Positions 43,095-64,000 of a DNA stretch of 64,000 nucleotides are shown here, in pieces. The translations under genes and the position numbers were made by a program. Under the pieces are notes generated by a model. That model was not told the origin of the DNA, searched no databases, and saw only the letters and a list, made by a program, of their open reading frames with translations. Position 1 is the first letter of the stretch, and each line of letters begins with the position of its first letter. Origin of the DNA: Bdellovibrionota bacterium (GTDB lineage Bacteria > Bdellovibrionota_G > JALEGL01 > DATDPG01); the NCBI GenBank assembly GCA_035292885.1, contig DATDPG010000019.1:59570-123569 (forward strand). Reading direction: 5' to 3'.

Positions 43095-43236
43095 CGTTCG
43101 ATACTGTAACGAATCTGGGTAGAAATTCCCATTCGTCGCCTTGGGAGGATGGCGAAGGCCTCATCGGCGTGTAAAACCGATCGGACGGCGTCCCGCGGAA
43201 TCAAAGACTTTCCAAGATTCTCTCTCTAAGTATGGG

Positions 43237-45168: not shown

Positions 45169-45213
45169 ATCTCAGCTTGGCGGGCGCCGAAACATGAACT
45201 CATTCTGAGCCTG

Positions 45214-45588
45214 TTATTTCGCCTTTGACTGCAGGTCTCGCGTGTATTCCGTCAACGCCGTAATGTCGGCGTCCGACAGTCCTTCCAACTTCTTCATCTT
45301 CCCTTTGCCCTCTTTCATCGACTTCTTAATGTCGTCGTCGGTGATTTTCTTGGCTTCGGGGGAAAGGATGCTGAGCCCTTCCGGCTTTTCGAGCTTCAGG
45401 GTTTTAGCTACCGGCATCCAGGAGCCGTCCGCCTTCTTTCCGCCGCCGTCTTCCGCGTGGCATTTCTTGCAATGCTTGTCGTACAGCGCCTTTTTCGCGG
45501 CGTCATCCGCCGCGAATGCGGACGCGGCAAACATCAAAGCGGGCACAACCAGGATTCCGATCAGTCCAATCAACGTCTTCTTCAACAT
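45214..45588 (-). CDS. Small periplasmic monohaem cytochrome c (paralog of 12625..12975)
   Basis: Start MLKKTLIGLIGILVVPALMFAASAFA behind RBS GGAGGA. Single CKKCH. Confidence 0.85.
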   Translation of the reverse strand: MLKKTLIGLIGILVVPALMFAASAFAADDAAKKALYDKHCKKCHAEDGGGKKADGSWMPVAKTLKLEKPEGLSILSPEAKKITDDDIKKSMKEGKGKMKKLEGLSDADITALTEYTRDLQSKAK

Positions 45589-45650
45589 AGGCTTCCTCCA
45601 GTGTTTCTTTTTAGATGATGCCAAATTTACGAACATGATTCGGATCAATG

Positions 45651-45685
45651 AAATGAAAAGAGGGCCGGCCCGTATGGGCCGGCCC
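45651..45685 (-). terminator. Rho-independent-type hairpin inside the cytochrome gene string
   Basis: Perfect 10-bp GC stem gggccggccc / gggccggccc with a 4-nt loop (45662..45685). On the minus strand it is followed by TCTTTTCATTT. Confidence 0.6.
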
Positions 45686-45719
45686 CGTCAATCGCTCTGG
45701 ACGGTTCAAACTCTCGCGC

Positions 45720-48700: not shown

Positions 48701-49163
48701 TTTCGCCGGAGAGAATTCCACCCGCGTCTTCCAAATCGATGGCCAGTTCATCCGTTCCGAATCGTGTGCGTGTGGTGATGGTGGAACCGGAACCGTTCGT
48801 GATGACCGCAAGAATCGTCTTGGCCGTGACGCTGACCGTGTCGGTGCTTTCGGCATCGTGGAGAGAGAGTTTCAACACGTACGTGCCGGCCGCGTCCGCG
48901 ACAAAGCTGGTCGCGATTTCGGAACCGCCCGTCAGAGCGGCGGAAGAACCGTCGGGTTTCGATTCAAGCGTCCATATAATATTGCCGACGACCGTGCTTC
49001 CGGAACCGTCCAAATTCACGGTGTCGCCGATCAGGACCTTCTGGTCCTCGCCTGCGTTAGCGGCGGCGGTCCCTTCCGGATCGTCGTCGCATGCCGAAAC
49101 ACTGATCGCCACGGCGGCAGCCGCGAGAAGATTGATCATCCAAAGTCCCTTCGTGCTTTTCAT
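45720..49163 (-). CDS. Giant surface lipoprotein octahaem cytochrome c with PKD-like domains and Cys-rich C-terminal repeats
   Basis: Start MKSTKGLWMINLLAAAAVAISVSAC (lipobox; RBS GAGGGAGAG). Motifs CAGCH, CENCHGPGSGH, CGQCH, CTRCH, CAGCHDPH, CYKCH, CLTCH, CTPCH. PKD-like DTVNLDGSGS...AGTYVLKLSLHD. C-terminal 4-Cys modules. Confidence 0.85.
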   Translation of the reverse strand: MKSTKGLWMINLLAAAAVAISVSACDDDPEGTAAANAGEDQKVLIGDTVNLDGSGSTVVGNIIWTLESKPDGSSAALTGGSEIATSFVADAAGTYVLKLSLHDAESTDTVSVTAKTILAVITNGSGSTITTRTRFGTDELAIDLEDAGGILSGENSRGSVVNYSWQQVSGPFATATAGSTSSTLPFTAPALKDFLTVGLREAEENAAHGGQSDEYKWQPLPVSIEDTKLYFRLTVDDGAGNSDSTTQVVYVQDAGAEIQRSSGLWTVPLNVPLYLQGPNSSVILEYTSTSTACNGSLPSTSTPTTRRAKPINDDWSWTLTPPDGSAAVFADSGTVASALQLPKFTPDVEGYYTVAYTATVDESAVGPDADGVRACGRVAPNCKYTSDGGVDHCTIVGSFRMYAGTYVGIGSITGDAARPECAGCHDGSAMPDKVGEWQGTNHSKLYENSYLAMSSLAPEPYLWGFETVGYNTSAANGGFDEAVASTGFDVSTQPGTYADFLADAPSVAALSGVQCENCHGPGSGHNGDATKIGVSASQTGICGQCHTQEAEWINSSHNMTGVSHGSASYQVSWLTNAACTRCHTSKGFINYVEGGEEALTPITEQEAFVGIGCAGCHDPHDATNEDQLRMHGELEMIIDESTVDAGKAAVCYKCHDGLYSFGEFSCDTNRDGVSDTLCETLEQNADYYTRQVHYNPQAPVLEGKGALLDLDKNGIDDVFTTGNSFHSEPGFILADVSGDPTLPTENRKCLTCHMAEGPDATEDGFRHLGGHSFNIMSGHGVGHLVGAEEEETVAGEAGELANISACTPCHTDLTEINREARGDYDGDGTIEGIQDEVTGLALLLSDAIKAYDDVNLGTCSVTTLDAGDCNANKKCTLAPYISCTAAGDTSCDAVKTCSAASTTIVADAQFCTSDAGCNLKKVNVTTVSATNYGPCGTITAGKCDQRSAYSCSKDEDCKIATTGTMYFGPCVTATNKCTIAKPRSTAGSTDEIECSTDNDCIVPDALGYSNFNGAGADARPCNTSGSSKNRCKEDTTISCGTVDPLDPTPTHDKCLSTCGAYIAGKCDNDLTTACTNAADCNPGVSVYPAGGAFKWARSDKIRRAIWNHNLVVRDGSMGVHNAGYEVGVLQGTYKVITGVAVPNATLR

Positions 49164-49189
49164 GTTTTCTCTCCCTCTCATGAAAGTTC

Positions 49190-49984
49190 TTACTGCGTAT
49201 GACATATGATGCAAGCCTGTCCATTGTCCGGATGCCGAAGCGGCGTATGGCAGCCCCGGCAATCCGCGTTAGGTAGATGGTTGACGTTGCTCGGTCGCCT
49301 CGGCGTGGCCATGTGAGCCGAGCTCGTTTGGTGGCACACCACGCACCTCTGTGCCCCATACGATTCCAGCGGGTAATGACAGTTCAGGCAGTGCCGATTT
49401 TGGGACGCCCCGAACCCGGCCATGTGATCGATCGGCTTCGTTTCCATATGGCACCGCTGGCAGAAGTCGGTCCGGTGGCACGTCATGCACTGCGATCGGT
49501 CGAAGCCCACCTGGAGCGCATGGCCGCGGAGGCGGAAGAATTGGTTGTGATTCGCCGGCGGCGTGATCTGGTGGCATTCCGAGCAGCTGGACTGCGTGTG
49601 GCAGAGGTTGCAGCTGTTCTTCGTGTCGAACCTAAACCGCTGCACCAGCGCGCCGTGCTCATGCTTGAACGTCAAATCGTGCCAGGCCGGTTTCGTGTCT
49701 TTGGTCATCCCGCCTTCGTGACATTCCGAACAGTCGCTGTCTCGCGCAACATCCGGGTGCTCCCACGTTGTGCCTTCGTCGCACCCTTTGTTGCCGAGAA
49801 AAAATGGGACCGCGAGCATTATTGTTAAAACAGACAACGATCGTCTGATGGGGTGCCAAGAAAATACGTTCGGGCTCCGGTCCCGACGGTACCCCCCAAG
49901 TCCATGCTCGAGACTGCGCGTGGACTTGGGTGTCCCCGTCGGGCCACCCGAACGTATTTTCTTGGCACCCTTCAAAAGTTCCAA
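49190..49984 (-). CDS. Nonahaem cytochrome c (periplasmic/barrel-inserted component)
   Basis: CSECH, CNLCH, CSECH, CMTCH, CQRCH, CLNCH, CVVCH, CRGCH, CIICH, with paired CxxCH-x4-CxxCH units as in 13308..13910. Hydrophobic segment LSVLTIMLAVPFFLGNKGC. The exact start is uncertain. Confidence 0.85.
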   Translation of the reverse strand: MELLKGAKKIRSGGPTGTPKSTRSLEHGLGGYRRDRSPNVFSWHPIRRSLSVLTIMLAVPFFLGNKGCDEGTTWEHPDVARDSDCSECHEGGMTKDTKPAWHDLTFKHEHGALVQRFRFDTKNSCNLCHTQSSCSECHQITPPANHNQFFRLRGHALQVGFDRSQCMTCHRTDFCQRCHMETKPIDHMAGFGASQNRHCLNCHYPLESYGAQRCVVCHQTSSAHMATPRRPSNVNHLPNADCRGCHTPLRHPDNGQACIICHTQ

Positions 49985-51973: not shown

Positions 51974-52660
51974 ATGGGCCAGAACGAACGACGAATCCAC
52001 ACACGGCTTCAGCTGAGCGAGGAGGTCCGGGCCTCCACTCCCAAAGGCTTTCTGACAGGCTACCTCCGAGATGTCTCCAAAGGGGGCGCGGGAGTCGTCT
52101 TCGAAGAGAGCGTCGGGGATGTCGGGGAAACGATCGAGATTTTTCTCCCCTTCCCCGGCGGCGTGGAGATCGCCGTGATGGCGGAGATTGTCCGAATCCA
52201 AGAAACCCAGGGCGGTCTCTTGCACGGCCTCTGCTTCAGCCTCGTTGAACCTTCGATGCAGGAAAAACTTCTGACGCTCGTCGAGACCCTCCTCGCCGGA
52301 TCGGGGGGAAAGCGACGGGAGCACCCGCGCGTCTCCAAGAGAATTCCGATCCGCTACGGGAACCAGGCGGAGTTTCAAGCCGGCCTCCAAACGATCTCCA
52401 TGGGTGGGTTGTCGATGATGATCGACACTCCCGTGGTTCTCTTCCAAGAGGTCGAAGTCTCCATTCCGGACGTCAGCGGTCGCGAACTTCTCATCCTCCC
52501 CGCCCGGGTGATCTACCAGCACAACCTCGAGAAAAGTGGAAAGAAGCAGTATGAGGTCGGTCTTCAGTTCCGTGAACTGACGGGTCCGCAGAAGGCCTGC
52601 CTCGCCGAACTCCTCCGCTACGTGATGGATACACCGGCCGACGCCACAGGTTCCAAGTGA
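51974..52660 (+). CDS. Tandem PilZ-domain protein (c-di-GMP receptor-type)
   Basis: Start MGQNERRIHTR. Two RxxxR...D/NxSxxG pairs: RRIHTR...DVSKGG and RREHPR...TISMGG. Confidence 0.8.
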   Translation: MGQNERRIHTRLQLSEEVRASTPKGFLTGYLRDVSKGGAGVVFEESVGDVGETIEIFLPFPGGVEIAVMAEIVRIQETQGGLLHGLCFSLVEPSMQEKLLTLVETLLAGSGGKRREHPRVSKRIPIRYGNQAEFQAGLQTISMGGLSMMIDTPVVLFQEVEVSIPDVSGRELLILPARVIYQHNLEKSGKKQYEVGLQFRELTGPQKACLAELLRYVMDTPADATGSK

Positions 52661-52960
52661 CTCCGTAAGCCATTTTGCGACGGCGTCCGCCTGGCCTCAC
52701 CGGGCCAAGCTTCGAACTCGGGAATTTCTAACGACCCTATACATGATGAAGATCATGTACAGACTCTCCCGACGAGAGTGTTATTGCGCGCAGGTTTAGT
52801 AGCTTCGGAGGCGTACGTCGGCTTGGGAGAAGCTGATCCACAAGATTGACTTTGAGACCCAAGAGGCATACGCCTTCGCGCGATCCGTGTGGAACGCCGA
52901 TGGCGGCCCGCACGATATTTTTCAATAAAACTCAATATTTGATTTTGGAGGAACGTACAA

Positions 52961-54211
52961 ATGCCAGAGCTCAATCCGTTTAAAATTGCTCAGCAACAGT
53001 TCGATGAGGCGGCCGAAAAGCTCGGCCTCGACAGCGCTACGCGAGAACTTCTCCGGTGGCCGATGACCGAAACGATCGTCAGCATCCCCGTCCGGATGGA
53101 CGACGGAACGACGAAAGTGTTTCGGGGGTATCGCGTTCAATACAACGGGTCCCGTGGGCCGACAAAAGGCGGCCTTCGGTGGCATCCGGAAGAGACGATC
53201 GACACCGTGCGAGCCCTGGCGGCATGGATGACCTGGAAGACCGCGTGCGTCGATATTCCTCTCGGCGGCGCAAAAGGCGGCGTTACCTGCAATCCGAAGG
53301 CGATGTCGACGAATGAAAAAGAGCGTCTGGCGCGCGGCTATATCCGCGCCGTCTCTCGTCAGCTGGGCGTCATGAAGGATGTTCCGGCGCCCGACGTCTA
53401 CACGACGCCGCAAATCATGGGTTGGATGATGGATGAGTTCGAGACGATCGTCGGCGAGCATCATCCGGGCGTCATCACCGGGAAACCGTTGCCGTTAGGC
53501 GGCTCCGAAGGTCGCGGCGATGCAACGGCTCGCGGCGGAATTTATTGCGTCCGCGAAGCGGCCAAGAAAATCGGCCTCGATCCAGCCAAGGCGACTTACG
53601 CCATCCAGGGATTCGGCAACGCCGGCCAATTTGCGGCGACGTTGCATAAGGAAGTCCTCGGCGGCGGCCGGCTGCTCGCGGCCAGCGACTCCCGCGGCGG
53701 CGTCACGAGCCCGGACGGCATGAATCCGGAGGCTCTGGTGAAGTTCAAGAATGAAACCGGCAGTGTCGTCGGATTCCCGAATACGAAGCCGATTTCGAAC
53801 GAGGAACTTCTGGTCATGAAATGCGATGTCCTCTATCCGTCGGCGCTGGAGAATGTCATCACGAGTCAAAACGCCGCGAACATCAAGGCGAAGATCGTTT
53901 GCGAGCTGGCGAACGGCCCGACGACGCCGGAAGCGGACACGATTCTGTTCAAGAATAATGTGTTCGTTCTCCCGGACTTCATGGCCAATGCCGGAGGCGT
54001 GACGGTCTCTTATTTTGAGCAGGTCCAGAATACGTACAACTATTACTGGCCGATCCAAGACGTCCATCAGCAGTTGGATCGAAAGATGACCGACGCGTTC
54101 AACGCGGTGTACGAGACCTCGCAGAAGAAAAAAGTCCACATGAGGCTGGCTGCATATATGGTGGCCGTGGCGCGCGTGGCGGAGGCCTGCAAGCTGCGCG
54201 GCTGGGTCTAA
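52961..54211 (+). CDS. gdhA: Glutamate dehydrogenase
   Basis: KGGLRWHPEETIDTVRALAAWMTWKTACVDIPLGGAKGGV, IQGFGNAGQFAA. 416 aa. RBS GGAGGA. Confidence 0.95.
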   Translation: MPELNPFKIAQQQFDEAAEKLGLDSATRELLRWPMTETIVSIPVRMDDGTTKVFRGYRVQYNGSRGPTKGGLRWHPEETIDTVRALAAWMTWKTACVDIPLGGAKGGVTCNPKAMSTNEKERLARGYIRAVSRQLGVMKDVPAPDVYTTPQIMGWMMDEFETIVGEHHPGVITGKPLPLGGSEGRGDATARGGIYCVREAAKKIGLDPAKATYAIQGFGNAGQFAATLHKEVLGGGRLLAASDSRGGVTSPDGMNPEALVKFKNETGSVVGFPNTKPISNEELLVMKCDVLYPSALENVITSQNAANIKAKIVCELANGPTTPEADTILFKNNVFVLPDFMANAGGVTVSYFEQVQNTYNYYWPIQDVHQQLDRKMTDAFNAVYETSQKKKVHMRLAAYMVAVARVAEACKLRGWV

Positions 54212-54217
54212 TTAAGC

Positions 54218-54378
54218 GTCCCGAGCCCGACATATCTTGATAGTCGGCCGCCGCTGCATCCCGGTTGGCTGCGTTGCTCCCCCTCGACGTACAGCTTTGC
54301 AAGTACGCCGTCGTCGTCGCGCCTTGCCAACCGGGCGCATCGGCGTCCTTTGTTATCAATCTATCTCGGGCTCGGGAC
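54218..54378 (+). mobile_element. 161-bp palindromic MITE-like element, copy A
   Basis: Terminal inverted repeats GTCCCGAGCCCGAcATAtcTTGATA / TATCAAtcTATcTCGGGCTCGGGAC (22/25 match; outer 13 bp perfect). Internal arms are also self-complementary. 152/161 identical (hand count, no gaps) to the reverse complement of 63143..63303. Confidence 0.7.
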
Positions 54379-54442
54379 GCTAGCGTTCCATAAGGGAACA
54401 CGGCGTTCTTTGCGGCGCCGGGTGGAATGTTATCATGCCGAT

Positions 54443-56827
54443 ATGCCCACCCGGCGCCGTCGTTTATCTCCTTCGAAATCGGCTCGTAAACGGCCTCCTC
54501 AGACTGAATCGAGTCGAGTCATTCAGCGCTATCTGCGCCGGTATCCGGGGCTCCGCGCCCGAATCATTCAGAATTTTCTCGTCCGCCTTCATTCCCAAGG
54601 GATCGTTTCGGTGGACGAAGTCTACCGGATTGCACTCGGGAAATCGGCGCTTCGGCAGCAGATCAAACACCGAGTCGCCATGAACATCGATACGGCCGTT
54701 CAATGGACGCGGACGGAACGGAACGCCGTATGGAAAACCGTTTTGTCGTACGCCGAGCGGCACTTTTCTCCGGAAGAAATTCACGATCTGGTCGGCGTGA
54801 CGGTCAAACGGGAAGAAGCGCAGAATCTTCAAGACATCGCCGGTCTTCCGGGAATTTCCTTCGAAATTCTTAAACGCAGGGTCGCGGATTTCTGCAAGCT
54901 TCCGCGGACCATCATTTCCCTGCCGCCTTCCGATCTGGTGGCGACCCGCGTCGCCCTCATGCGGCAGTTTGTCAGCGATCACATTGATTTTCTTACGGTC
55001 GCACGAAACTACGTCCAGGTGCGGGACCTGGACGTCGTCGCCCAGCGAATCATCGGTCCGAGGGAAGGAATGGGGCGGATCGGCGGGAAAGCGGCCGGCC
55101 TGCTTCTGGCCGACAAGATTTTACGCCAGCATTACCAGAACGCGGGAAGAGAGCCTCTGATGCCGCTCAAGACACCCGACTCATATTATTTGCGGTCCGA
55201 TTTGAACGACGAGTTCGTCCGCCGGAACGGCCTCATGGAATACGCGAGCCAGAAATACAAATCGCAGGAGGCGATCGAAGCCGATTACCCCCTGCTCCGG
55301 GAGCTTTTTCACGCCGGTTCATTCCCTCCCGAAGTCGTCTCCCGCATTCGAAAATTGCTGGAGAAACTCGGACCCACGCCGTTGATCGTCCGTTCCTCCA
55401 GTTTGTTGGAAGACAGCCTCGGCGCCGCGTTTTCCGGGAAATACCGGAGCATCTTTCTGGCGAATCAGGGCTCCCTTTCCAATCGACTGATTCGCTTTTT
55501 GAGCGCCGTAAAGGAGGTTTACGCGGGCGTGCTCTCGGCCGATCCACTGGTCTACCGGCGGGAGCGGGATCTAATCGACTACGACGAATTCATGGCGATT
55601 CTGATTCAACCGGTCGTGGGAAGGACGTATCGGCACTATTATTTTCCACTTTTCGCCGGCGTGGCGTTTTCGCGAAACGATTACTACCGGTGGGACCGCC
55701 GAATTCGCCGCGAGGACGGCTTGGTCCGCCTCGTCGCGGGGCTCGGCACACGCGCCGTGGACCGTGTCAGCGCGGAGTATCCGAGAATGATCGCCCTCAC
55801 GGTCCCGTCGCTCCGTCCCCAAGGGGACGTGGACGAGATCTGTCGCCAGTCTCAGCGCCGCGTGGATGTCGTGAATCTTAGAACGAACAGATTTGAAACA
55901 CTCAATTTTACCGACGCGATCGAGGCGGAACCCCCGCCGAATTTCGATCTGGTGGCTTCCATTGTAGAAGAGGAAGCCTTGCGACCGATCGTCGGAAATT
56001 TCGTGGATACCTCCCGACAATCGATCTGCCTGACGTTTGACAAATTGATTGAATCGACGCCGTTCGCGCCTCACATGCGTGAGGTGTTAAGCGTCTTGGA
56101 AAAGGGCTACGGATGCCCGGTGGACATCGAGTTCGCCAGCGATGGAAAAGATTTTTATCTGCTTCAATGCCGGCCGTTGGCGCAGAAAATCGAAGCTAGC
56201 CGTGTGCGCGTTCCGACGGACGTCGAGCCGAAGCGGGTTCTGTTCAACGCCCAGCGTGACGTGATGAACGGCATCGTGCGAAATATTGAATACATTGTTT
56301 ATGTTCCGGCCGAAGCGTACGACGACGTCTCTGATCTGACGACGAAACAGATGATCGGCCGCGTGGTGGGGCAGCTGAACCAGAAACTGCACGGCTCCAG
56401 ATTCATCTTGCTCGGTCCGGGACGCTGGGGATCCAACGACATCAATCTGGGCGTGCGCGTGAATTACGCCGACATTCGAAACAGCCGCGCTCTCATCGAG
56501 GTGGCTCATGAGAAGGACGGTTACGTTCCCGAAGTTTCGTTCGGCACACACTTCTTTCAAGATCTTGTGGAATCCGGAATCAGTTACCTGCCGCTCTATC
56601 CGGATGAGCCGGGCGGAATCTTCAATGCGGATTTTCTTCTGAATTCACCGAACCGCTTGCCGAAACTGTTGCCCAACCACAAGAGTTTTGCCCCGATAGT
56701 GCGGGCCATTCATGTCCCTGAAGTGGCGGAAGGCGAGTACGCCCATTTGCTGATGGACGGCGAGAATGAATTGGCGCTCTGTTATCTGGGCCCGATGCAG
56801 AGGGAAGAGGCGTCGACGCAGGCGTAG
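54443..56827 (+). CDS. PEP/pyruvate-binding (PEP synthase / PPDK N-terminal ATP-grasp-like) domain protein
   Basis: Start moved to MPTRRRR (the track ORF start at 54350 lies inside the repeat element). GRIGGKAAGLLLA and LIVRSSSLLEDSLGAAFSGKYRSIFL match the PPDK_N-type signature. I did not see a phospho-His swivel motif. Confidence 0.75.
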   Translation: MPTRRRRLSPSKSARKRPPQTESSRVIQRYLRRYPGLRARIIQNFLVRLHSQGIVSVDEVYRIALGKSALRQQIKHRVAMNIDTAVQWTRTERNAVWKTVLSYAERHFSPEEIHDLVGVTVKREEAQNLQDIAGLPGISFEILKRRVADFCKLPRTIISLPPSDLVATRVALMRQFVSDHIDFLTVARNYVQVRDLDVVAQRIIGPREGMGRIGGKAAGLLLADKILRQHYQNAGREPLMPLKTPDSYYLRSDLNDEFVRRNGLMEYASQKYKSQEAIEADYPLLRELFHAGSFPPEVVSRIRKLLEKLGPTPLIVRSSSLLEDSLGAAFSGKYRSIFLANQGSLSNRLIRFLSAVKEVYAGVLSADPLVYRRERDLIDYDEFMAILIQPVVGRTYRHYYFPLFAGVAFSRNDYYRWDRRIRREDGLVRLVAGLGTRAVDRVSAEYPRMIALTVPSLRPQGDVDEICRQSQRRVDVVNLRTNRFETLNFTDAIEAEPPPNFDLVASIVEEEALRPIVGNFVDTSRQSICLTFDKLIESTPFAPHMREVLSVLEKGYGCPVDIEFASDGKDFYLLQCRPLAQKIEASRVRVPTDVEPKRVLFNAQRDVMNGIVRNIEYIVYVPAEAYDDVSDLTTKQMIGRVVGQLNQKLHGSRFILLGPGRWGSNDINLGVRVNYADIRNSRALIEVAHEKDGYVPEVSFGTHFFQDLVESGISYLPLYPDEPGGIFNADFLLNSPNRLPKLLPNHKSFAPIVRAIHVPEVAEGEYAHLLMDGENELALCYLGPMQREEASTQA

Positions 56828-56828
56828 C
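56732..56828 (+). repeat. 97-bp direct repeat, copy 1 (authentic 3' end of the PEP-binding gene including its TAG)
   Basis: 92/97 identical (hand count) to 57486..57582. Confidence 0.9.
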
Positions 56829-56861
56829 GGCAAGCGTGGAGTTCGCGATCGGGAAACCCGG

Positions 56862-57143
56862 TCAGCTGATTTTTTCTTTCTCCGCCATCCGCCCGCTTAC
56901 AAACTTGTAAAGTACGCTTGAAATCAGCGTCTGATAAGGTATCCCTTCTTCCGCCGCCTTCACCCGAAGCCGCTCCAGCACCTGAGACGGAATTCTTATA
57001 TTCACCCTCTTGTCTTTGGCGAGCGTAGCGCGGGCGTATTTTTGGTATTTAGATTTTTCCCTTCTCAGTGAACGAACGGAACGCCATTCGTCTCGATCAT
57101 AAGAATCAAGAATCTCCTTCTCCTCTATATTTGGATGCTTCAT
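56862..57143 (-). CDS. brnA: BrnA-type (CopG/RHH) antitoxin
   Basis: RVNIRIPSQVLERLRVKAAEEGIPYQTLISSVLYKFVSG. 4-nt overlap with brnT. Confidence 0.8.
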   Translation of the reverse strand: MKHPNIEEKEILDSYDRDEWRSVRSLRREKSKYQKYARATLAKDKRVNIRIPSQVLERLRVKAAEEGIPYQTLISSVLYKFVSGRMAEKEKIS

Positions 57144-57421
57144 TTGCGTCCCTTTCGTATATATATTCGGGTAGCCTTACGACTCGGAATGATGGTTTTA
57201 AACACGATTTCTGCGCCCTTTTCTTCAAAGGGGACCAAACATGCGTAACCGTTGATATCGAGGACGAAAATTCGCTGAAAAGGGTACTTCGCCTTATTGG
57301 GATGTTCCAAGATATCGAGAACACCTCCTCTTTCAATGACCAAAACCGCTTCCTCGAAGGAAATTTCTCGTTGGCTCTTAAGGCTCGCATTCTTCCCCGG
57401 ATCCCACGTAAAAACCTTCAC
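57140..57421 (-). CDS. brnT: BrnT-type (DUF497) toxin
   Basis: MKVFTWDPGKNASLKSQREISFEEAVLVI... is the characteristic BrnT N-terminus. Confidence 0.85.
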   Translation of the reverse strand: MKVFTWDPGKNASLKSQREISFEEAVLVIERGGVLDILEHPNKAKYPFQRIFVLDINGYACLVPFEEKGAEIVFKTIIPSRKATRIYIRKGRK

Positions 57422-57485
57422 TGTTGCTAATTGTAAGACAATGTGTGCCTAACGTCAACAACACTCTGGGCTAGTCGTCGCAGCC

Positions 57486-57582
57486 GGCGAGTACGCCCAT
57501 TTGCTGATGGACGGCGAGAATGAATTGGCGCTCTGATATCTGGGCCCTGTGCAGAGGGAAGAGACGTCGACGCAGGCCTAGC
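57486..57582 (+). repeat. 97-bp direct repeat, copy 2 (non-coding relic of the gene 3' end)
   Basis: ggcgagtacgcccatttgctgatggacggcgagaatgaattggcgctctg... repeats 56732..56828 with 5 substitutions. Confidence 0.9.
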
Positions 57583-57651
57583 TGCAGGCTTGGACTGATT
57601 CAGATCATAGTAATTGTGCGTGCCGGCAATCATGATCCAGAATAGGAAATT

Positions 57652-58734
57652 ATGACCCAAATCCGAGCCTGGAAGTTCCAAAAAGCGGGGGAGCCGTTTT
57701 CGTTTGCGGAATCCGCCATGCCCAAACCGGCGCCGGGAGAAGTGTTGGTGCGAGTCGCGGGTTGCGGGGTTTGCCACACGGATCTCGGATACGTCTACGA
57801 CTCCGTTCGGACCGTCAAACCCCTTCCGCTGACGCTCGGTCACGAAATCAGCGGATTCGTGGAGGAGGTCGGCGCCGGGGCAAAAGAATGGATGGGAAAA
57901 GCGGTGATTATTCCGGCCATCCTTCCCTGCGGCGAATGTGATCTTTGCAAGAAGGGGAGACGATCGATCTGTCGGCGGCAGAAAATGCCTGGGAACCATA
58001 TCGACGGTGGTTTCGCAAGTCACATTGTTGTTCCCTCCCGTTTTCTGTGCGCCGTGCACGTTCGAAACGAAAATGAACATTTCGGCGATTCCGGCGTCAC
58101 GCTGAAGGAGCTCTCCGTCGTGGCGGATGCCGTTACCACGCCGTACATGGCGATTAAAAGGAGCGGCTTGGCAAAGGGCGATTTGGCGATCTTCGTCGGT
58201 GTCGGCGGAATTGGGGGTTTTGGTGTTCAGCTCGCCGCCGCTTTGGGCGCAACGGTTGTGGCCGTCGACATCTCGGACAAACGTCTTCAATTCATGAAGG
58301 AACATGGCGCCGAGGCCATTTTCAATTCGAAAGAGATCAACGGAAAGGAACTCCGAAGGGCGATCGGCGCGTTCGCGGCCGAACGAAAACTTCCGTCGTA
58401 CGAATGGAAGATTTTTGAAACCTCGGGGAGCGCCGCCGGGCAAGAACTAGCGTTTGGGCTCTTGACCTTCGGCGCTCATTTGGCCGTCGTCGGTTATACG
58501 ATGGAACAACCCGCCCTGCGCTTAAGCAATTTGATGGCGTATGACGCCCAAGCTTCGGGAAATTGGGGATGTGATCCGGTCTATTACCGGGAGGTGCTGG
58601 ATCTGGTAAAGAGCGGAAAGATCAAGCTTGCGCCGTTCGTGGAGCTGCACCCATTGAACCAGATCAACGAGATTTTCAACTGGGCGCACCACAAGAAACT
58701 GGAACGGCGCGCCGTTCTGATACCGGAAAAATAA
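57652..58734 (+). CDS. had: Zn-dependent alcohol-dehydrogenase-family enzyme, probable 6-hydroxycyclohex-1-ene-1-carbonyl-CoA dehydrogenase
   Basis: GEVLVRVAGCGVCHTDLGY, LTLGHEISGFV, structural-Zn cluster CGECDLCKKGRRSIC, and GVGGIGGFGVQ. The function is assigned from its context next to oah/dch/bcr. Confidence 0.65.
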   Translation: MTQIRAWKFQKAGEPFSFAESAMPKPAPGEVLVRVAGCGVCHTDLGYVYDSVRTVKPLPLTLGHEISGFVEEVGAGAKEWMGKAVIIPAILPCGECDLCKKGRRSICRRQKMPGNHIDGGFASHIVVPSRFLCAVHVRNENEHFGDSGVTLKELSVVADAVTTPYMAIKRSGLAKGDLAIFVGVGGIGGFGVQLAAALGATVVAVDISDKRLQFMKEHGAEAIFNSKEINGKELRRAIGAFAAERKLPSYEWKIFETSGSAAGQELAFGLLTFGAHLAVVGYTMEQPALRLSNLMAYDAQASGNWGCDPVYYREVLDLVKSGKIKLAPFVELHPLNQINEIFNWAHHKKLERRAVLIPEK

Positions 58735-58744
58735 AGGAGGACCG

Positions 58745-59845
58745 ATGTCGCCGTTTAAAGATCATGATTTGGTTCCGAATCCGAAGTTCACGCAGATCCT
58801 TTACGAATTAAAGCCGTGTCGGAACCCGAAAGGGTCGTCCGTTGCCGACCTTTTCAACGCGTGGATCACGCTGAACAATCCGGAGCAGTTCAATTCGTAC
58901 ACGACGCAGATGGTGAAAGAGACCATTTTGGCGTTTCGGACCGCGTCGAATCAGCGCAATGTGGTCGCGGTCGTCTTGACGGGCGCGGGCGAAAAAGCCT
59001 TCTGTACGGGGGGGAACACGAAGGAATACGCGGAGTACTACGCGGGCCAGCCGGACGAATATCGCCAATACATGAGGCTGTTCAACGACATGGTGACGAC
59101 GATTCTCCAGTGCGACAAGCCGGTGATCTGCCGGGTCAACGGCATGCGGATCGCCGGAGGCCAGGAAGTCGGCATGGCGTGTGACTTCTCGATCGCGAGC
59201 GACCGCGCAGTTTTCGGACAGGCCGGACCGAAGCACGGCTCCGTTCCGGACGGCGGCTCGACGGATTTCTTGCCTCTTTTCGTCGGCGTGGAGCGGGCGA
59301 TGGAAAGTTGCACGCTCTGCGAGACCTGGAGCGCCTATCAGGCGTATCGGCTCGGATTGATCACCGACGTCGTTCCGGTGCTGAAACGGAATGGAACGTT
59401 TATTTCGAACCCGGCGGTCATTACGGGCCGCTGGATCGATGAGGCCGGAAAGATCGTCTACGGCCAATTCAAGACGGGAGAGGACCGATCGAGCGCCGAA
59501 AAGATCGTTCGCGAATGCAAGGTGGATCTGTCGGCGCTCGATCGTGCGGTCGAAAGTATGTGCACGTCCCTTCTAATGACGATGCCGGGGTGCCTCTCCA
59601 AGACGCTCAGCTCCGTTCGAAAGCATAAGCTGGAACATTGGGACCGGAACCGAGAGACCAACCGCGACTGGCTCGGCCTGAACATGATGACCGAAGCGAA
59701 GGTCGGGTTCCGGGCGTTCAACGAAGGAACGAAGGAAAACCGCGAGGCCGATTTTATCGAGCTGCGCCGGAGACTTGCCCGCGGCGAGCGATGGAGCGAC
59801 ACGTTGGTCGAGGCGGTCCTCCCGTCGAAGAAGGAGAAGATTTAG
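58745..59845 (+). CDS. oah: Crotonase-superfamily enzyme, probable 6-oxocyclohex-1-ene-1-carbonyl-CoA hydrolase (Oah/BamA-like)
   Basis: 366 aa, long for a crotonase. VVLTGAGEKAFCTGGN, VNGMRIAGGQEVGMACDFSIA. Confidence 0.6.
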   Translation: MSPFKDHDLVPNPKFTQILYELKPCRNPKGSSVADLFNAWITLNNPEQFNSYTTQMVKETILAFRTASNQRNVVAVVLTGAGEKAFCTGGNTKEYAEYYAGQPDEYRQYMRLFNDMVTTILQCDKPVICRVNGMRIAGGQEVGMACDFSIASDRAVFGQAGPKHGSVPDGGSTDFLPLFVGVERAMESCTLCETWSAYQAYRLGLITDVVPVLKRNGTFISNPAVITGRWIDEAGKIVYGQFKTGEDRSSAEKIVRECKVDLSALDRAVESMCTSLLMTMPGCLSKTLSSVRKHKLEHWDRNRETNRDWLGLNMMTEAKVGFRAFNEGTKENREADFIELRRRLARGERWSDTLVEAVLPSKKEKI

Positions 59846-60616
59846 ATGGTCCCCTTCAAGAAGATCAAAGTCGACAAACTCTACGACGGCCAGGTTTGGT
59901 GGATTACGTTGAATGTTCCCAAGGGTAACGTTCTGGACCGGGAGATGATGTTGGAGATCGAAGACTCCGCGAGATCGGCCCGCATTCCGTCGGTGAAGGC
60001 GCTTGTTTTCGAGGGGGCGGGGGATCATTTCTCGTTCGGCGCCAGCGTGGCCGAACACACCAAAGAAGCGGCGCCGAGCATGCTGGCGGCGTTCCATCAA
60101 CTCTTCCGAACGTTGATCGATTCATCGAAACCTCTGGTTGCCGTCGTACGGGGTCAATGTCTCGGAGGAGGAATGGAATTGGCGACGTTTTGCCACTGGG
60201 TGTTCGCTTCCGAAAACGCCATGTTCGGCCAGCCCGAGATTCAGCTCGGCGTTTTTCCGCCGGTCGCATCGATCGTGCTTCCAGCCAAGGTCGGCCAGGC
60301 GGCCGCGGACGATCTCATCCTGACGGGTCGGTCGATTCCGGCGCGCGAAGCCAAGGAAATCGGCCTCATCACTTCCGTTTCCGGCGATCCAAAGGCGGAA
60401 GCGACGAACCTGCTCGACAAACAGATTCTCCCCAAGAGCGGTGCGGCGCTGGAATTCACCGTAAAAGCGAGCCGGTATGAATTTCATGAAGCCTTCCGCC
60501 GTGGAATCGAGCGGCTGGAGAAGACGTATGTTCGTGAATTGATGGAAACCGCCGACGCCAACGAGGGAATCGCATCCTTCCTGGAGAAACGGAAACCGGC
60601 CTGGAAAAATCGATGA
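59846..60616 (+). CDS. dch: Crotonase-superfamily enzyme, probable cyclohexa-1,5-diene-1-carbonyl-CoA hydratase
   Basis: The start abuts the upstream stop (TAGATG). LVFEGAGDHFSFGASVAEH, VVRGQCLGGGMELATFCH. Confidence 0.6.
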   Translation: MVPFKKIKVDKLYDGQVWWITLNVPKGNVLDREMMLEIEDSARSARIPSVKALVFEGAGDHFSFGASVAEHTKEAAPSMLAAFHQLFRTLIDSSKPLVAVVRGQCLGGGMELATFCHWVFASENAMFGQPEIQLGVFPPVASIVLPAKVGQAAADDLILTGRSIPAREAKEIGLITSVSGDPKAEATNLLDKQILPKSGAALEFTVKASRYEFHEAFRRGIERLEKTYVRELMETADANEGIASFLEKRKPAWKNR

Positions 60617-60624
60617 GGAATTCG

Positions 60625-60695
60625 GGGGACACACGACTGGACCCAAACTCCAATTGCTTCTCAAGAAGCCAATTCGGGTCCATACATGTGTCCCC
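60625..60695 (+). promoter_or_regulatory. 71-nt extended three-segment hairpin in the dch-bcrC spacer
   Basis: GGGGACACA/TGTGTCCCC (9 bp), TGGACCC/GGGTCCA (7 bp) and AATTGCTTCT/AGAAGC(C)AATT (10 bp with one bulge), nested. No U-tract follows. Confidence 0.5.
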
Positions 60696-60706
60696 TTAAT
60701 TAAGAG

Positions 60707-61870
60707 ATGACCGTCGAGCAGATCATCGGGCGCTGTCAGGTGCTCTACGACGATCTGGAATTCAAATACGTCCGAGAATGGAAATCGAAAAAAGCCGGGC
60801 GCAAAGCGGTGGGTTACATGCCGATCTATATCCCCCGGGAGCTGGTGCGGGCGGCCGGTATTCTTCCCGTCGGCCTGATGGGCGGGGGGGACCAGCTGGA
60901 AATCATCCGCGGAGATTCGTACTTTCAGTCATACATCTGCCACATTCCGCGAAGCACGATCGAACTGGGTCTCCTCAAGAGATTCGATGACCTCGATGGT
61001 TTGATCTTTCCGAGCACGTGCGACGTCATCCGAAACCTGTCGGGGATGTGGAAGCTTCTGTTTCCCGACCGGTACGTGAAATATTTTGATGTTCCGCAGA
61101 ATTTCGACCGAAATACGGCGGGAACGTATTACCGCCACGAGCTTCAGACGCTGCAAACGGATTTCGAACGGTTGTCCGGACAAGAGATTTCGGCGGAAGG
61201 ACTTCGAAAGGCGATCCGGCTCTATAACGAGAACCGGCGCTTGATTCGGGAGCTGTACGATCTTCGCTGCGAGCGGCCCTGGCTCGTTCCAACGACCGAG
61301 AGCTACCTGCTCCTTCGAGCGGGAAATCTCCTGGACGTCGAAGAGCACAATCGAATGCTGGCGGACTACCTCCGAGCCGTCATTCGCGTCGACCGCCGTC
61401 CTCTGGACAACAGCCGGGTCGTGATCCGGGGCGTTTTCTGCGAGCAGCCGCCGCTCAACCTGATCAAGACCTTGGAACGTTCGGGCTGTTACATCGTGGA
61501 AGACGATTTCGTCCTGGTCTCCCGCTGGATTCGAGGAGACATCCCCACCGAGGGGGACCCGCTCGAGAATCTGGTTCGCGCCTTTTTGGAGGACAGCGTG
61601 GAAACCGCCGTTCGGTACGACAGCGCGGACGAAAAAGGAACCCGATTGATCGAAATCGTCCGAAAGCGAAAAGCGGACGGCGTGATTTTTTGTGCGCCCA
61701 GTTTCTGCGATCCGGCACTTCTGGACCAGCCGATGTTGACGGCGGCTCTGGAAAAAGAGGAGATTCCTTATACGCACTTCAAGTTCGCCGAGAACACCGG
61801 GCAGTTTCAGGTCATCCGGGAGCAGGCCGGAACCTTTTCGGACTCCGTGAAACTTTGGGGGACCCTATGA
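60707..61870 (+). CDS. bcrC: Benzoyl-CoA reductase / 2-hydroxyacyl-CoA dehydratase family subunit (BcrC/BadD-like)
   Basis: 387 aa. KAVGYMPIYIPRELVRAAGILPVGLMG...YICHIPRSTIE...FPSTCDVIRN is an HGD-D-type fold signature. Confidence 0.7.
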   Translation: MTVEQIIGRCQVLYDDLEFKYVREWKSKKAGRKAVGYMPIYIPRELVRAAGILPVGLMGGGDQLEIIRGDSYFQSYICHIPRSTIELGLLKRFDDLDGLIFPSTCDVIRNLSGMWKLLFPDRYVKYFDVPQNFDRNTAGTYYRHELQTLQTDFERLSGQEISAEGLRKAIRLYNENRRLIRELYDLRCERPWLVPTTESYLLLRAGNLLDVEEHNRMLADYLRAVIRVDRRPLDNSRVVIRGVFCEQPPLNLIKTLERSGCYIVEDDFVLVSRWIRGDIPTEGDPLENLVRAFLEDSVETAVRYDSADEKGTRLIEIVRKRKADGVIFCAPSFCDPALLDQPMLTAALEKEEIPYTHFKFAENTGQFQVIREQAGTFSDSVKLWGTL

Positions 61871-63141
61871 GCGGAAAAATTCAAAAAGAACAGAGCATGG
61901 TCGTTCAAAAAGAAATGATCGCCGACTATTACAGCCGTCTTTCCCGGGCGCACGACGAAGGGAAGAAGGTCGTCTACACGTTTGTCCCCGGAAATTTGAT
62001 TGAATTGATCGACGCGCTCGGATTTTTGCCCGGTCTACCCGAGATCAACGCTCTTCAATCGGGGATGCGCGGCAAGTCGGCGGGGTACATCGCCGAGGCG
62101 GAAAAGGCGGGACATTCGGAAGATGTCTGCACGTACGTCAAGTGCGACATCGGGATGAAAAAATCGGGAAACATCGGTCCGACCGGCGAGAAAATTCCCG
62201 AACCGGATCTGTTGCTCCTGTCGTACACCGGCTGCTTCACCTTCATGAAATGGTTCGAGCTTCTCCGGAAGGAATACAACTGCCCGGTGGCGATGCTCCA
62301 CGTTCCCTACCAAGCGGACGGCGTCATCACCGACAACATGCGCAACTACGTCGTCGACCAGTTAAAAAACAACATTATCCCGACCATGGAAAAGGTGGTC
62401 GGTCGAAAGCTCGATCTGGACGAATTGTCGGCCCGCATGGCTCGCTCGGCGAAGGCGGAAGACGATTTGGTAAGCGTGTTCCAGTCGGCCAAGAAACGGC
62501 CGTCGCCGATCGACGCGTATTTCGGGGGCGTCTATTATATCGGGCCGATCTTCACGGCGTTCCGGGGCAGCGAAGCGTGCCAGACCTATTACCGCGTTCT
62601 CCGCGGTGAAGTGGAAGAGCGGATCGAGGAGCACAAAGGGCCGGTGACGCCCGAAGGGGACATTTCGCAGGAAAAATACCGTCTCGTCGTAGAGGGGCCT
62701 CCCAATTGGACCAACTTCCGGGAGTTCTGGAAGATGTTTTACGATGAGGGGGCGGTCGTTGTCGCCTCGACCTATACGAAAGTCGGGGGCGTCTACGACC
62801 GAGGCTTCCGGCACGATCCGAATCGTCCGCTCGAATCGCTCGCCGAGTACTGTCTCGGCTGTTACACGAACTTGAATCTCCCGTCGCGGATTTCGATGCT
62901 GGAAAAATATGTGAAGGAGTACGACGCGGACGGCTTTCTCATCAATTCGGTCAAGAGCTGCAATTCCTTCTCGGCCGGACAGCTTTTGATTTTGAGGGAA
63001 CTCGAAGCCCGCACGGGAAAGGCGGGAGCGTTCATCGAGACGGACCTCGTCGACCCCCGGTACTTCTCGGCGTCGAACGTGAAGACTCGACTTGAGTCGT
63101 ACTTTCGAATGATCGACATGAAAAGGGCAAGGGCAGCCTAG
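61867..63141 (+). CDS. bcrB: Benzoyl-CoA reductase / 2-hydroxyacyl-CoA dehydratase family subunit (BcrB/BadE-like)
   Basis: Real start MSGKIQKEQ in an ATGA overlap with the bcrC stop (the track ORF start 61690 is an extension). KKVVYTFVPGNLIELIDALGFLPGLPE...CTYVKCDIG...SYTGCFTFMKW...VKSCNSF. Confidence 0.7.
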   Translation: MSGKIQKEQSMVVQKEMIADYYSRLSRAHDEGKKVVYTFVPGNLIELIDALGFLPGLPEINALQSGMRGKSAGYIAEAEKAGHSEDVCTYVKCDIGMKKSGNIGPTGEKIPEPDLLLLSYTGCFTFMKWFELLRKEYNCPVAMLHVPYQADGVITDNMRNYVVDQLKNNIIPTMEKVVGRKLDLDELSARMARSAKAEDDLVSVFQSAKKRPSPIDAYFGGVYYIGPIFTAFRGSEACQTYYRVLRGEVEERIEEHKGPVTPEGDISQEKYRLVVEGPPNWTNFREFWKMFYDEGAVVVASTYTKVGGVYDRGFRHDPNRPLESLAEYCLGCYTNLNLPSRISMLEKYVKEYDADGFLINSVKSCNSFSAGQLLILRELEARTGKAGAFIETDLVDPRYFSASNVKTRLESYFRMIDMKRARAA

Positions 63142-63142
63142 T

Positions 63143-63303
63143 GTCCCGAGCCCGAAATAGATTGATAACAAAGGTCGCCGATGCGCCCGGATGGCAAGGC
63201 GCGACGACGAAGGCGTACTTGCAAAGCTGTACGTCGAGGAGGAGCAACGCAGCCAGCCGGGATGCAGCGGAGGCCGTCTATCAAGATATGTCGGGCTCGG
63301 GGC
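63143..63303 (-). mobile_element. 161-bp palindromic MITE-like element, copy B (inverted relative to copy A)
   Basis: The reverse complement aligns gap-free with 54218..54378 (9 mismatches). Fills the bcrB-bcrA spacer. Confidence 0.7.
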
Positions 63304-63309
63304 ACTAAG

Positions 63310-64000
63310 GTGGAGTGCTTTATCGGAATTGACTTGGGATCGACCACCACAAAAGCGGTCATCATCGATCGAAACCGGAATATTTTGGGCAGTGGAATTA
63401 CGAACAGCCGGAGTAATTATGACGTCGCCTGCAAGATCGCCCGCGAGGAGGCGTTCACAAACGCCCGCTTCTCTCTGATTCGCGGTAAGGCAAAGCAGCG
63501 GGGCTTGCTGAATTCGGAGGGAGAGAAGGCCCTGGTCCGACTCGGAAACGAATTTTTCGTCCAAGACTTTTTGATCCAGTTGTGGAACCTTCGCGATTTA
63601 GCCACGGAACGGCTTCGGAACGAGCGCTATGCAACTTCCCGATTGACACTGCAAAAAATTCTCAGAGAAATATTTGAAGATATTGAAGAAAAGGCGATGA
63701 AAGACGTCGGGGGAGGGGGGAGACGAAAATCGGACTTTTTCCGAGATCTGGCCGGAGCCTATTATCAAGAATCGGCGGAACGTTACGCCCGGGAGGGAAA
63801 AATCCCCTTCGAGCTGCTGATGAGCGTGTTCGACGGCGTGATTTTTCTTGTCGAGAATTCGATGGAGGAAAAAGGATTCGCTGAAATCATGAAAGGTCTC
63901 TTCGACCGGGTCGGCTTCGGCATCTTCCCGAAGGAACGGGAAACCGATTGGCGGGAGTTGATCGAGGCAACGGCCTCCACGCCTTTCAATGAAGCGGGAA
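63310..64000 (+). CDS. bcrA: BcrA/BadF/BzdQ-type ATPase subunit (BadF/BadG/BcrA/BcrD family), 5' part; runs off window end
   Basis: Open-ended, so absent from the track. Hand translation from GTG 63310 gives VECFIGIDLGSTTTKAVIIDRNRNILGSGITNSRSNYDVACKIAREEAF... (acetate/sugar-kinase-fold phosphate-1 motif). Confidence 0.75.
   Translation, partial: MECFIGIDLGSTTTKAVIIDRNRNILGSGITNSRSNYDVACKIAREEAFTNARFSLIRGKAKQRGLLNSEGEKALVRLGNEFFVQDFLIQLWNLRDLATERLRNERYATSRLTLQKILREIFEDIEEKAMKDVGGGGRRKSDFFRDLAGAYYQESAERYAREGKIPFELLMSVFDGVIFLVENSMEEKGFAEIMKGLFDRVGFGIFPKERETDWRELIEATASTPFNEAG

Follow-up and report, generated by a model that had tools for sequence, protein, structure and literature searches.

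In an uncultured bacterium, a 165-nt hairpin lies exactly on the bcrB stop codon of the operon for class I benzoyl-CoA reductase. This hairpin and its inverted counterpart upstream are very probably two independent insertions of a non-autonomous element of the cut-and-paste type (a MITE), the second of which (copy B) landed at the bcrB stop. Within the 64-kb stretch of DNA that was analysed (the window), the order is gdhA, copy A, a PPDK_N-like gene, had, oah, dch, bcrC, bcrB, copy B and bcrA, a gene context already given correctly by the sequence-only reading that preceded this work, and both genes flanking copy B stay intact. The features involved are as follows:

52961 to 54211, plus strand: gdhA (glutamate dehydrogenase), upstream neighbour of copy A
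54216 to 54380, plus strand: MITE copy A, 165 nt, within the 3′ region of gdhA (nhmmer against the family profile, E 1e-32)
54216 to 54242, plus strand: left terminal inverted repeat of copy A, GCGTCCCGAGCCCGACATATCTTGATAG
54354 to 54380, plus strand: right terminal inverted repeat of copy A
54381 to 54382, no strand: TA to the right of copy A (its left flank, 54214-54215, reads AA within TTAA)
54412 to 54470, plus strand: likely gdhA terminator, with a GC-rich hairpin of 14 bp ahead of a U-rich tail (-42.8 kcal/mol, z -3.4)
54611 to 56827, plus strand: gene with a PPDK_N domain (PEP-utilising-like), downstream neighbour of copy A
57652 to 61870, plus strand: had-oah-dch-bcrC, between the copies (TIGR03201, TIGR03200, TIGR03189, TIGR02263)
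61867 to 63141, plus strand: bcrB (424 aa; TIGR02260, 719 bits), intact
63139 to 63140, no strand: left TA of the copy B duplication, which with the first G of the element forms the bcrB stop TAG
63141 to 63305, minus strand: MITE copy B, 165 nt, inverted with respect to copy A (nhmmer E 1.6e-33)
63306 to 63307, no strand: right TA of the copy B duplication
63310 to 64000, plus strand: 5′ part of bcrA, with a GTG start at 63310, running past the window end

The two inverted copies of a palindromic element announced by the sequence-only reading were recovered by a repeat finder as arms of 169 nt (54215-54383 and 63138-63306), 93% complementary and 8754 nt apart. In the original 161-nt frame, positions 54218-54378 align without gaps to the reverse complement of 63143-63303 with exactly 9 mismatches, as had been counted by hand; after refinement of the boundaries each copy measures 165 nt, with 11 mismatches between them and a longest identical run of 28 nt. 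Terminal inverted repeats are present in each copy as described, 24 of 27 positions being complementary in copy A, where the outermost 15 nt are perfect, and 23 of 27 in copy B, with one mismatch within the outermost 15. Folding bore out that the whole unit can form a single long hairpin, with -93.3 kcal/mol (z -9.9) for copy A and -94.0 kcal/mol (z -8.6) for copy B, and 0 of 200 shuffled sequences as stable as the native ones. Open frames in the element reach only about 54 aa, and their homologues are confined to spurious or fused ORFs; the element has no coding capacity for a transposase, and its size is below the limit for MITEs (~300 bp). A search with nhmmer found no third copy in the 64-kb window, so two copies are known in the 64 kb of the source genome examined. 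The possibility that the repeats were an assembly artefact was ruled out by contigs from independent assemblies (ENA contigs of two other assemblies and one Logan contig; source samples ERZ27254861, ERZ27254865 and SRR3989295), which are 100% identical over copy A (loci L122 and L123) and over the first 135 nt of copy B (L122).

The target-site duplications, which could not be defined at first, can now be given as TA. At copy B a TA stands on either side, and across the family the left flank is TA in 9 of 11 cases and the right flank likewise in 9 of 11, for the most part in the form C-TA-G. The element would seem to insert at a TA dinucleotide, often in a C-TA-G context, and to duplicate it. 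A target-site duplication of the kind found in bacterial MITEs is observed with two exceptions, locus L134 and copy A, whose duplication is imperfect since its left flank reads AA and not TA.

Copy B occupies the spacer between bcrB and bcrA, and a comparison with the nearest relative (L129, BcrB 80% identical) supports the notion that the element separates the two genes. The relative has the same gene order as the window, had-oah-dch-bcrCBAD, with no spacer at the junction, where bcrB and bcrA overlap as TAATG. When copy B and one TA were deleted in silico, the compact bcrB-stop/bcrA-start junction GCAGCC-TAA-G-GTG resulted. In this line, copy B probably inserted into the TA of an ancestral bcrB TAA stop codon, which would have moved bcrA 167 nt downstream. 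The bcrB TAG stop (63139-63141), which had been said to abut the element, in fact overlaps its first base; because the duplicated TA and this first G rebuild a stop codon, BcrB remains unchanged, and its C-terminus is indeed unaltered when compared with the L129 relative. The window BcrB is 100% identical to NCBI HLG18498.1. An extension of bcrA from an in-frame ATG within copy B had also been suggested, and it stands that from in-frame ATGs at 63181 and 63262 the reading frame continues into bcrA without a stop. The extended protein is nevertheless unnecessary, given that the native GTG corresponds to position 1 of the BcrA profile and to the start of the relative (N-termini VECFIGIDLGS in the window and MDCVVGIDLGS in L129). 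From this GTG, bcrA is open and intact over 230 codons and matches TIGR02259 positions 1-197 from its first residue. The best empty-site comparison for the window copies is this 80%-identical relative, with no empty site from a close strain.

Copy A begins 4 nt past the gdhA TAA stop, where it probably inserted upstream of the probable gdhA terminator; as this terminator lies 3′ of the element, copy A is likely co-transcribed in the gdhA 3′ UTR. Each copy is expected to be transcribed along with its neighbours and to form a very stable hairpin in the RNA. In the predicted fold of the bcr mRNA, the bcrB stop and the bcrA start face each other at the base of the stem, which suggests that the insertion is probably tolerated, either through retained coupling or through processing as described for other MITEs.

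A wider family was revealed through ORFs that gene callers had run across copies of the element. Loci L125, L126, L127, L130, L131, L132 and L134, from other metagenomic genomes, match with nhmmer E values from 1e-18 to 1e-43 and carry diverged members, about 75% identical, 155-165 nt long and usually TA-flanked in a C-TA-G context; a derivative of ~62 nt with an internal deletion also exists. The terminus TAGTGTCCCGAG of L125 is shared with the window element, and termini vary among subfamilies yet stay complementary within every copy. Locus L127 holds 9 copies in 16.6 kb, within or at the edges of intergenic spacers. Other members, of 160+2 = 162 nt (54 codons), lie within intact genes and keep the frame: a RecQ-type helicase, a Y-family polymerase and a DUF222-HNH protein carry them in linkers, a TonB receptor in its signal peptide, and protein clusters contain length classes 54 aa apart. 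Insertion polymorphism is seen between L134 and L135/L136, where flanks 98% identical differ by a precise 162-nt indel; the filled site reads TA...TT and the empty one TT, which points either to an imperfect duplication or to a deletion that produced the "empty" allele. For copy B of the window, the distant L129 is the only analogue of such a comparison. With the TA duplication, the wider family, the dense multi-copy loci and the filled/empty polymorphism, the initial MITE-like reading has become firmer, and the plan of the element would be that of a MITE: 165 nt, terminal inverted repeats of ~27 nt and a long, imperfectly palindromic body. Bacterial MITEs are ~100-200 bp long, form long stem-loops, often have 5′-TA-3′ at their ends as well as duplicated targets, and are inserted in operons and, in frame, in genes (PMC2229807, PMC10969869).

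Mobilisation would have to occur in trans, by a transposase encoded elsewhere in the genome. The reported absence of a transposase from the window held for the ORFs scanned: no transposase domain appeared in 29 ORFs that lie upstream of gdhA, most of those there of ~190 aa and above, or in the series of genes that begins with gdhA and ends with bcrA. Likewise, the window and the fetched loci, a very small search space, contained no autonomous IS with matching termini; the transposases near L132 are IS30-like (HTH_38 and rve) and IS5-like (DDE_Tnp_1), with ends that do not match. IS630 elements show a preference for CTAG, and the family shares the TA target with CTAG preference of IS630/Tc1-mariner MITEs, its TA flanks being mostly C-TA-G. 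Since no transposase was found, it is this target habit, and nothing else, that suggests a DDE enzyme of the IS630/Tc1-mariner type as the one that may mobilise the element. A precedent is RUP, tied to IS630-Spn1 via its TA targets (PMC2229807).

Some features of the family fit this MITE explanation less well. Within a locus, most copies point the same way (8 of 9 in L127, 5 of 5 in L131), something not predicted by a symmetric DDE mechanism, and the central core is better conserved across genomes than the termini, the reverse of the usual MITE pattern. Both observations, together with the long hairpin shape and the dense intergenic copies in L127, would suit a REP/REPIN-type element moved in single-stranded form by a transposase of the RAYT kind (IS200/IS605-like). 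We regard this as unlikely, because TA stands on both sides of most copies and filled and empty sites differ by the 160-nt element plus 2 nt. IS200/IS605-type insertion makes no target duplication. Moreover, the termini form genuine inverted repeats, with covariation from one subfamily to another, the end sequences GCGTC, GTGTC and GCAGC show no conserved GTAG/CGTC tag, and no fetched locus contains a Y1-transposase gene; REPs are 20-40-nt units with a GTAG or CGTC tag, no target duplication and an associated RAYT gene (PMC3733652). As for ERIC and other enterobacterial repeats, a blastn comparison of the element with 5,426 E. coli genomes gave no match. The conserved core could otherwise be read as functional in itself, the repeats being a structured non-coding RNA or protein-binding module with its own host function that was repeated by chance (mRNA stabiliser, attenuator and RNase III site were named as examples). 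The core GCTGCATCCCGG..GCTGCGTTGCTCC / TCGTCGCGCCTTGCCA.CCGGGCGCATC is kept, in contrast to the variable outer stems, between genomes with GC contents of 56% and 65-69%, the predicted fold is very stable, and of the 11 mismatches that separate copy A from copy B, 2 lie at paired positions and keep or improve the pair (2/164 is compensatory and 35/131 turns a G.T wobble into T-A). However, both strands fold equally well, which leaves no strand-specific G-U signature, no Rfam 15 family matches at E <= 1 in 52000-64000, the window copies lie in opposite orientations relative to transcription, and those in coding sequences occur in either one. Copy B contains no promoter or terminator motif and copy A only a weak 6-bp terminator-like match, whereas the signatures of mobility account for the distribution with no need of a host function, so that this explanation appears quite improbable.

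The sequence-only reading had spoken of the copies as bracketing 8.8 kb, wording that suggests a unit where two independent insertions are the better fit, and had raised a potential on/off switch, in which recombination between the copies would invert had-oah-dch-bcrCB relative to bcrA. Taken as a rival explanation, the block would be a programmed invertible segment whose flipping turns benzoyl-CoA reductase on and off. Two 93%-identical 165-nt repeats do flank the block in inverted orientation, and in two assemblies a contig ends inside a copy, which makes structural heterogeneity conceivable. Nonetheless, all three independent assemblies that cover a junction show one and the same orientation (limited evidence, as only L122 reaches copy B), no recombinase or invertase domain was found among the genes in or beside the block, and the identity of 93% leaves no identical run above 28 nt. 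The same family occurs elsewhere as single scattered insertions, some of them inside genes, and a flip would part bcrCB from bcrAD, breaking the operon with no promoter logic; neither copy nor its surroundings yielded a sigma-70-like promoter. A switch of this kind is therefore extremely improbable.

Going further than the MITE explanation itself, the family might be an undescribed one spread across phyla, with a core under selection for a function of its own, and a free-living counterpart of the Rickettsia palindromic elements (RPE), an extension that we consider doubtful. The core would then act either as a module, whether of RNA or for protein binding, or as a peptide linker of 54 residues that is tolerated. 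It is asymmetric, central and ~100 nt long, with the ends as the presumed transposase-binding parts. According to the MAG labels, the 56% GC window belongs to Bdellovibrionota, and the contigs of 65-69% GC have one cluster member labelled Gammaproteobacteria.

In practical terms, bcrA should not be extended into the element, nor should ORFs be called across it, and the handling of the hairpin may influence bcrAD expression. The family offers a natural example of a TA-targeting MITE tolerated in three settings, namely a stop/start junction, 3′ UTRs and in-frame insertions of 54 codons in conserved proteins, and it may explain some contig breaks in metagenome assemblies. Altogether, the element is a real and fairly ordinary kind of mobile DNA, which leaves the current understanding of MITEs unchanged.

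Among known elements, RUP and other IS630-associated MITEs are, like the window element, small and non-coding, with terminal inverted repeats and a stem-loop fold (PMC2229807). RUP inserts at TA, has this dinucleotide at each end and presumably depends on mobilisation in trans (PMC2229807), and the window family has TA flanks in a C-TA-G context. RUP measures 107 nt in comparison with 155-165 nt, the collections searched contained no similar sequence, and as no cognate IS630-type element with matching termini was found, the link is one of target-site habit only. The Correia/NEMIS elements of Neisseria, of ~100-155 bp, share terminal inverted repeats of ~25 bp, the TA duplication and insertion within operons, and are co-transcribed with their neighbours as long hairpins cleavable by RNase III (PMC10969869, PMC2229807); their sequence and host are unrelated, and the window copies have no detected sigma-70-like promoter. 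The Rickettsia palindromic elements (~105-150 bp) contain open reading frames and sit in frame within conserved genes in a non-destructive way (PMC2229807, PMC10969869). Relatives of the window element resemble them, by description, as in-frame insertions of 54 codons, whereas the window copies are intergenic and, TA included, measure 167 nt, which is not divisible by 3, and the hosts of the family are free-living environmental bacteria instead of Rickettsia. Finally, Chunjie, a MITE from Geobacter uraniireducens, differs in sequence, size (178-235 bp) and host, and has many intergenic copies of variable size; like copy B, it was found inside an operon whose structure was left undisturbed (summarised in PMC10969869).

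The paired inverted repeat is a real feature of the window, returned by a repeat finder as the single outstanding inverted pair (arms at 54215-54383 and 63138-63306, 169 nt, 93% complementary, 8754 nt apart). In the 161-nt frame of the sequence-only reading, a recount gave the same 9 mismatches and 0 gaps. Comparison of the ends with each other and with related copies extended the element by 2 bases on each side to 165 nt, a frame in which copies A and B show 11 differences and a longest identical run of 28 nt. The terminal inverted repeats already described are present in each copy, with 24/27 matching positions in copy A and 23/27 in copy B; in copy A the outermost 15 nt show no mismatch. 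As had also been anticipated, each copy is predicted to fold as RNA into one long imperfect hairpin (-93.3 and -94.0 kcal/mol; z of -9.9 and -8.6 against dinucleotide shuffles), and 2 of the 11 differences affect paired bases of the hairpin, where pairing is preserved or strengthened. No third copy was found in the 64-kb window with nhmmer.

NCBIfam and Pfam assignments bore out the gene order proposed from the sequence, with copy A between gdhA and the PEP-binding gene and copy B between bcrB and bcrA:

52961-54211, gdhA
54216-54380, copy A, downstream of gdhA
54611-56827, PPDK_N-domain gene
downstream of the PPDK_N-domain gene, had, oah, dch, bcrC and bcrB, with the end of bcrB at 63141
63141-63305, copy B, between bcrB and bcrA
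63310, GTG start of bcrA

A TA dinucleotide borders copy B at either end (63139-63140 and 63306-63307), and the present TAG stop of bcrB, which had been seen to abut the element, is made up of the left TA and the first G of copy B. When copy B and one TA are deleted in silico, the junction reads ...GCAGCC-TAA-G-GTG-GAG..., where bcrB ends in TAA and the GTG of bcrA follows one base on. The closest available relative, a 210-kb Logan contig with an 80% identical BcrB (L129), keeps the gene order of the window, had-oah-dch-bcrC-bcrB-bcrA-bcrD, and its bcrB and bcrA overlap as TAATG. Together, the reconstructed empty junction and this overlap identify the 168-nt bcrB-bcrA spacer of the window as an insertion. 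Copy A begins 4 nt past the TAA stop of gdhA and has TA at its right flank and AA (within TTAA) at its left, so that its target duplication is imperfect. For copy B the target-site duplication, previously left undefined, can be given as TA. Judged from the sequences, the BcrB and BcrA proteins are untouched by the insertion: the C-terminus of BcrB is ...MKRARAA in the window versus ...MKRKAAH in L129, and the N-terminus of BcrA is VECFIGIDLGS versus MDCVVGIDLGS, aligned from position 1 of the TIGR02259 profile. In-frame ATGs that could extend bcrA do exist within copy B, at 63181 and 63262, which would lengthen the protein by 43 and 16 aa, respectively, but such an extension would be unnecessary, since the native start is conserved.

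Three further contigs, each from a different sample, also encode GdhA and match the window at 100% identity, which rules out the assembly artefact considered at the outset. They are L122 (ENA ERZ27254861, a 42.9-kb contig, of which the 20,317 nt compared correspond to window 42961-63277), which spans copy A and 135 nt of copy B before the contig ends; L123 (ERZ27254865), which spans copy A; and L124 (Logan SRR3989295), which ends 39 nt into copy A. BcrB has a 100% match in NCBI HLG18498.1, labelled 'MAG TPA: ... [Bdellovibrionota bacterium]' and located on a 133-kb contig. Contig ends thus lie inside element copies in two independent assemblies (L122, at window 63277, and L124, at window 54256), which may reflect either further copies in those samples or loss of coverage at a very strong hairpin. 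In L124, a Logan contig assembled at k=31, the break might point to a third copy, similar to A, in the sample, or to poor coverage of the hairpin.

Relatives of the element were reached by translating its three open frames and searching a protein collection for ORFs that run through copies. Contigs from other samples carry diverged copies that are about 75% identical to the element across positions 25-133, and in L125 over its full length (nhmmer E-values of 1e-18 to 1e-43); the terminus TAGTGTCCCGAG is common to the window element and L125. Copies of the family measure 154-165 nt and each folds into a long hairpin, a statement that rests on single-copy folds: when 17 copies were aligned with MAFFT and analysed with RNAalifold, the outer arms were misaligned, so that no family-wide consensus hairpin emerged. 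TA occurs at 9/11 left and 9/11 right flanks, usually as C-TA-G, and the termini vary from one subfamily to another (GCGTCCCGAGCCCGA, GTGTCGTGTCTCAG, GCAGCCCGTGGTGAAAGTCC, GTGGTGTGTCTCAC), the two ends of any one copy being complementary. One contig (L127) holds 9 copies in 16.6 kb, within or at the edges of intergenic spacers, one of them in the nusA-infB spacer, and another (L131, 21118-21183) carries a derivative of about 62 nt that retains only the two terminal repeats, separated by a short loop, and starts with C-TA-G. In alignments of the window copies with L125-L134, a central asymmetric core (GCTGCATCCCGG..GCTGCGTTGCTCC / TCGTCGCGCCTTGCCA.CCGGGCGCATC) shows higher conservation than the terminal inverted repeats between genomes whose GC contents are 56% and 65-69%, the reverse of what is usual for MITEs. 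Most copies within a locus also share one orientation (8/9 in L127, 5/5 in L131), a uniformity that symmetric cut-and-paste does not predict and that might reflect a replication- or transcription-related bias.

Other searches were unproductive. A scan of a genome collection with the 11-nt termini and a free interior gave 120 matches in unrelated GC-rich genomes, mostly ordinary GC-rich sequence, none of which shares the interior. A metagenome scan with a 20-base terminal/subterminal pattern gave one match, in the AT-rich JGI contig Ga0256827_10005447 (L121, 4326-4350), where 25 nt of an aspartate-semialdehyde-dehydrogenase-like (asd-like) coding sequence (..STYQSISGSG..) are identical to the element terminus (31/33 with flank); it was judged to be due to chance. 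No element match was found in viral contigs, plasmids, phages, E. coli genomes or Rfam. An exhaustive HMMER search with the 54-aa open frame gave low-complexity Ser/Pro-rich proteins as top matches, and only about 13 short single-stretch matches that, at the protein level, resemble real element copies.

An insertion polymorphism was found in a TonB-receptor gene (L134), which differs from 98%-identical orthologues (L135, L136) by a precise 162-nt insertion, a 160-nt element (2189-2348) plus 2 nt, located in the signal-peptide region and read through in frame. The filled site has TA at one flank and TT at the opposite flank, and the empty allele TT, which would be explained by an imperfect duplication, a non-canonical target or an empty allele formed by deletion between microhomologies. 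Together with this one, the in-frame relatives, of 160 nt plus TA or 54 codons (L131 11540-11699; L132 11252-11411; L134 2189-2348; proteins P0125, P0126, P0127 and P0139), occupy genes that are still intact, in GC-rich environmental bacteria. The 54-codon unit occupies the linker of a RecQ-type helicase (RQC 419-512, element 514-565, HRDC 599-665), and lies between IMS and IMS_C in a Y-family polymerase and between DUF222 and HNH in a DUF222-HNH protein; several 90%-identity protein clusters show two length classes about 54 aa apart.

The element is small and non-coding, with terminal inverted repeats, TA flanks, multi-copy relatives, insertion polymorphism and a reconstructable empty site for copy B, and its initial reading as a MITE was right. 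A TA duplication within CTAG is the habit of IS630/Tc1-mariner-type DDE transposases, and IS630 prefers CTAG targets, so that an enzyme of this type would mobilise the element in trans. TA targeting has been reported for RUP/IS630-Spn1 (PMC2229807). A scan of 29 larger window ORFs upstream of gdhA and of the genes from gdhA to bcrA gave no transposase, and none of the related loci examined has one with element-matching termini; next to the L132 copy lies an IS30-like transposase gene, which lacks such termini. The stronger conservation of the core, the mostly uniform orientation within loci and the 2/11 differences that keep or improve a pair leave a low probability for mobilisation by a single-strand (RAYT-like) route or for selection on a function of the core.

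The suggested on/off switch, in which the block between copies A and B would flip, found no support: the three assemblies covering a junction share one orientation (copy B being reached by L122 alone), no recombinase was found in or beside the segment, identity between the copies extends over no more than 28 consecutive bases, and elsewhere the family occurs as single insertions. A composite transposon carrying had-oah-dch-bcrCB was rejected, as no transposase was found, the block stops partway through an operon, and L129 has the same order without the element. A segmental inverted duplication was likewise rejected, given the TA flanks and the wider family.

At the transcript level, a 14-bp GC-rich hairpin with a 21-nt loop, followed by a U-rich tail, lies just downstream of copy A (54412-54470) and is probably the gdhA terminator, missed by a simple terminator scan because of the size of its loop; copy A, being upstream of it, probably lies within the gdhA 3' UTR. 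Copy B, where no promoter-like or terminator-like motif was found, would have to be transcribed within the bcr mRNA. The insertion would have moved the original Shine-Dalgarno-like AAGGG 167 nt further upstream, the end of the element offering GGGG 7 nt before the GUG. In the predicted mRNA fold, the region of the bcrB stop and the bases immediately 5' of the bcrA GUG form the base of the stem, so that this start would stay hidden as long as the stem is closed; a ribosome that finishes bcrB at its stop codon would open the stem. By analogy with Correia elements, for which RNase III-type cleavage has been described (PMC10969869), the bcr transcript could possibly be cut at the element.

Two further features of the window were recorded. 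A direct duplication of about 110 nt (56723-56840 and 57477-57594), covering the 3' end of the PPDK_N-like gene with its TAG stop, flanks a small BrnA/CopG-type antitoxin ORF and a 67-aa ORF (56862-57343, minus strand), and the two resemble an inserted toxin-antitoxin cassette that separates had from the PPDK_N gene. Multihaem cytochromes, cytochrome b, a molybdopterin oxidoreductase with NrfD and several PilZ-domain Ser/Thr kinases (13300-16230 and 37130-49260) make up a gene company that is unusual for a genome labelled Bdellovibrionota.

Altogether, the element is new, having no match in the collections or literature searched, and belongs to a well-known kind of bacterial mobile DNA; that it inserted precisely at a stop codon within the bcr operon is neat but has precedents. 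In-frame insertion has been described for Rickettsia palindromic elements, ERIC and the 107-bp form of Correia (PMC2229807, PMC10969869). The relatives of the family resemble Rickettsia palindromic elements in lying in frame inside intact genes, here outside Rickettsia, whereas the two copies of the window, 167 nt long with their TA, are both intergenic.
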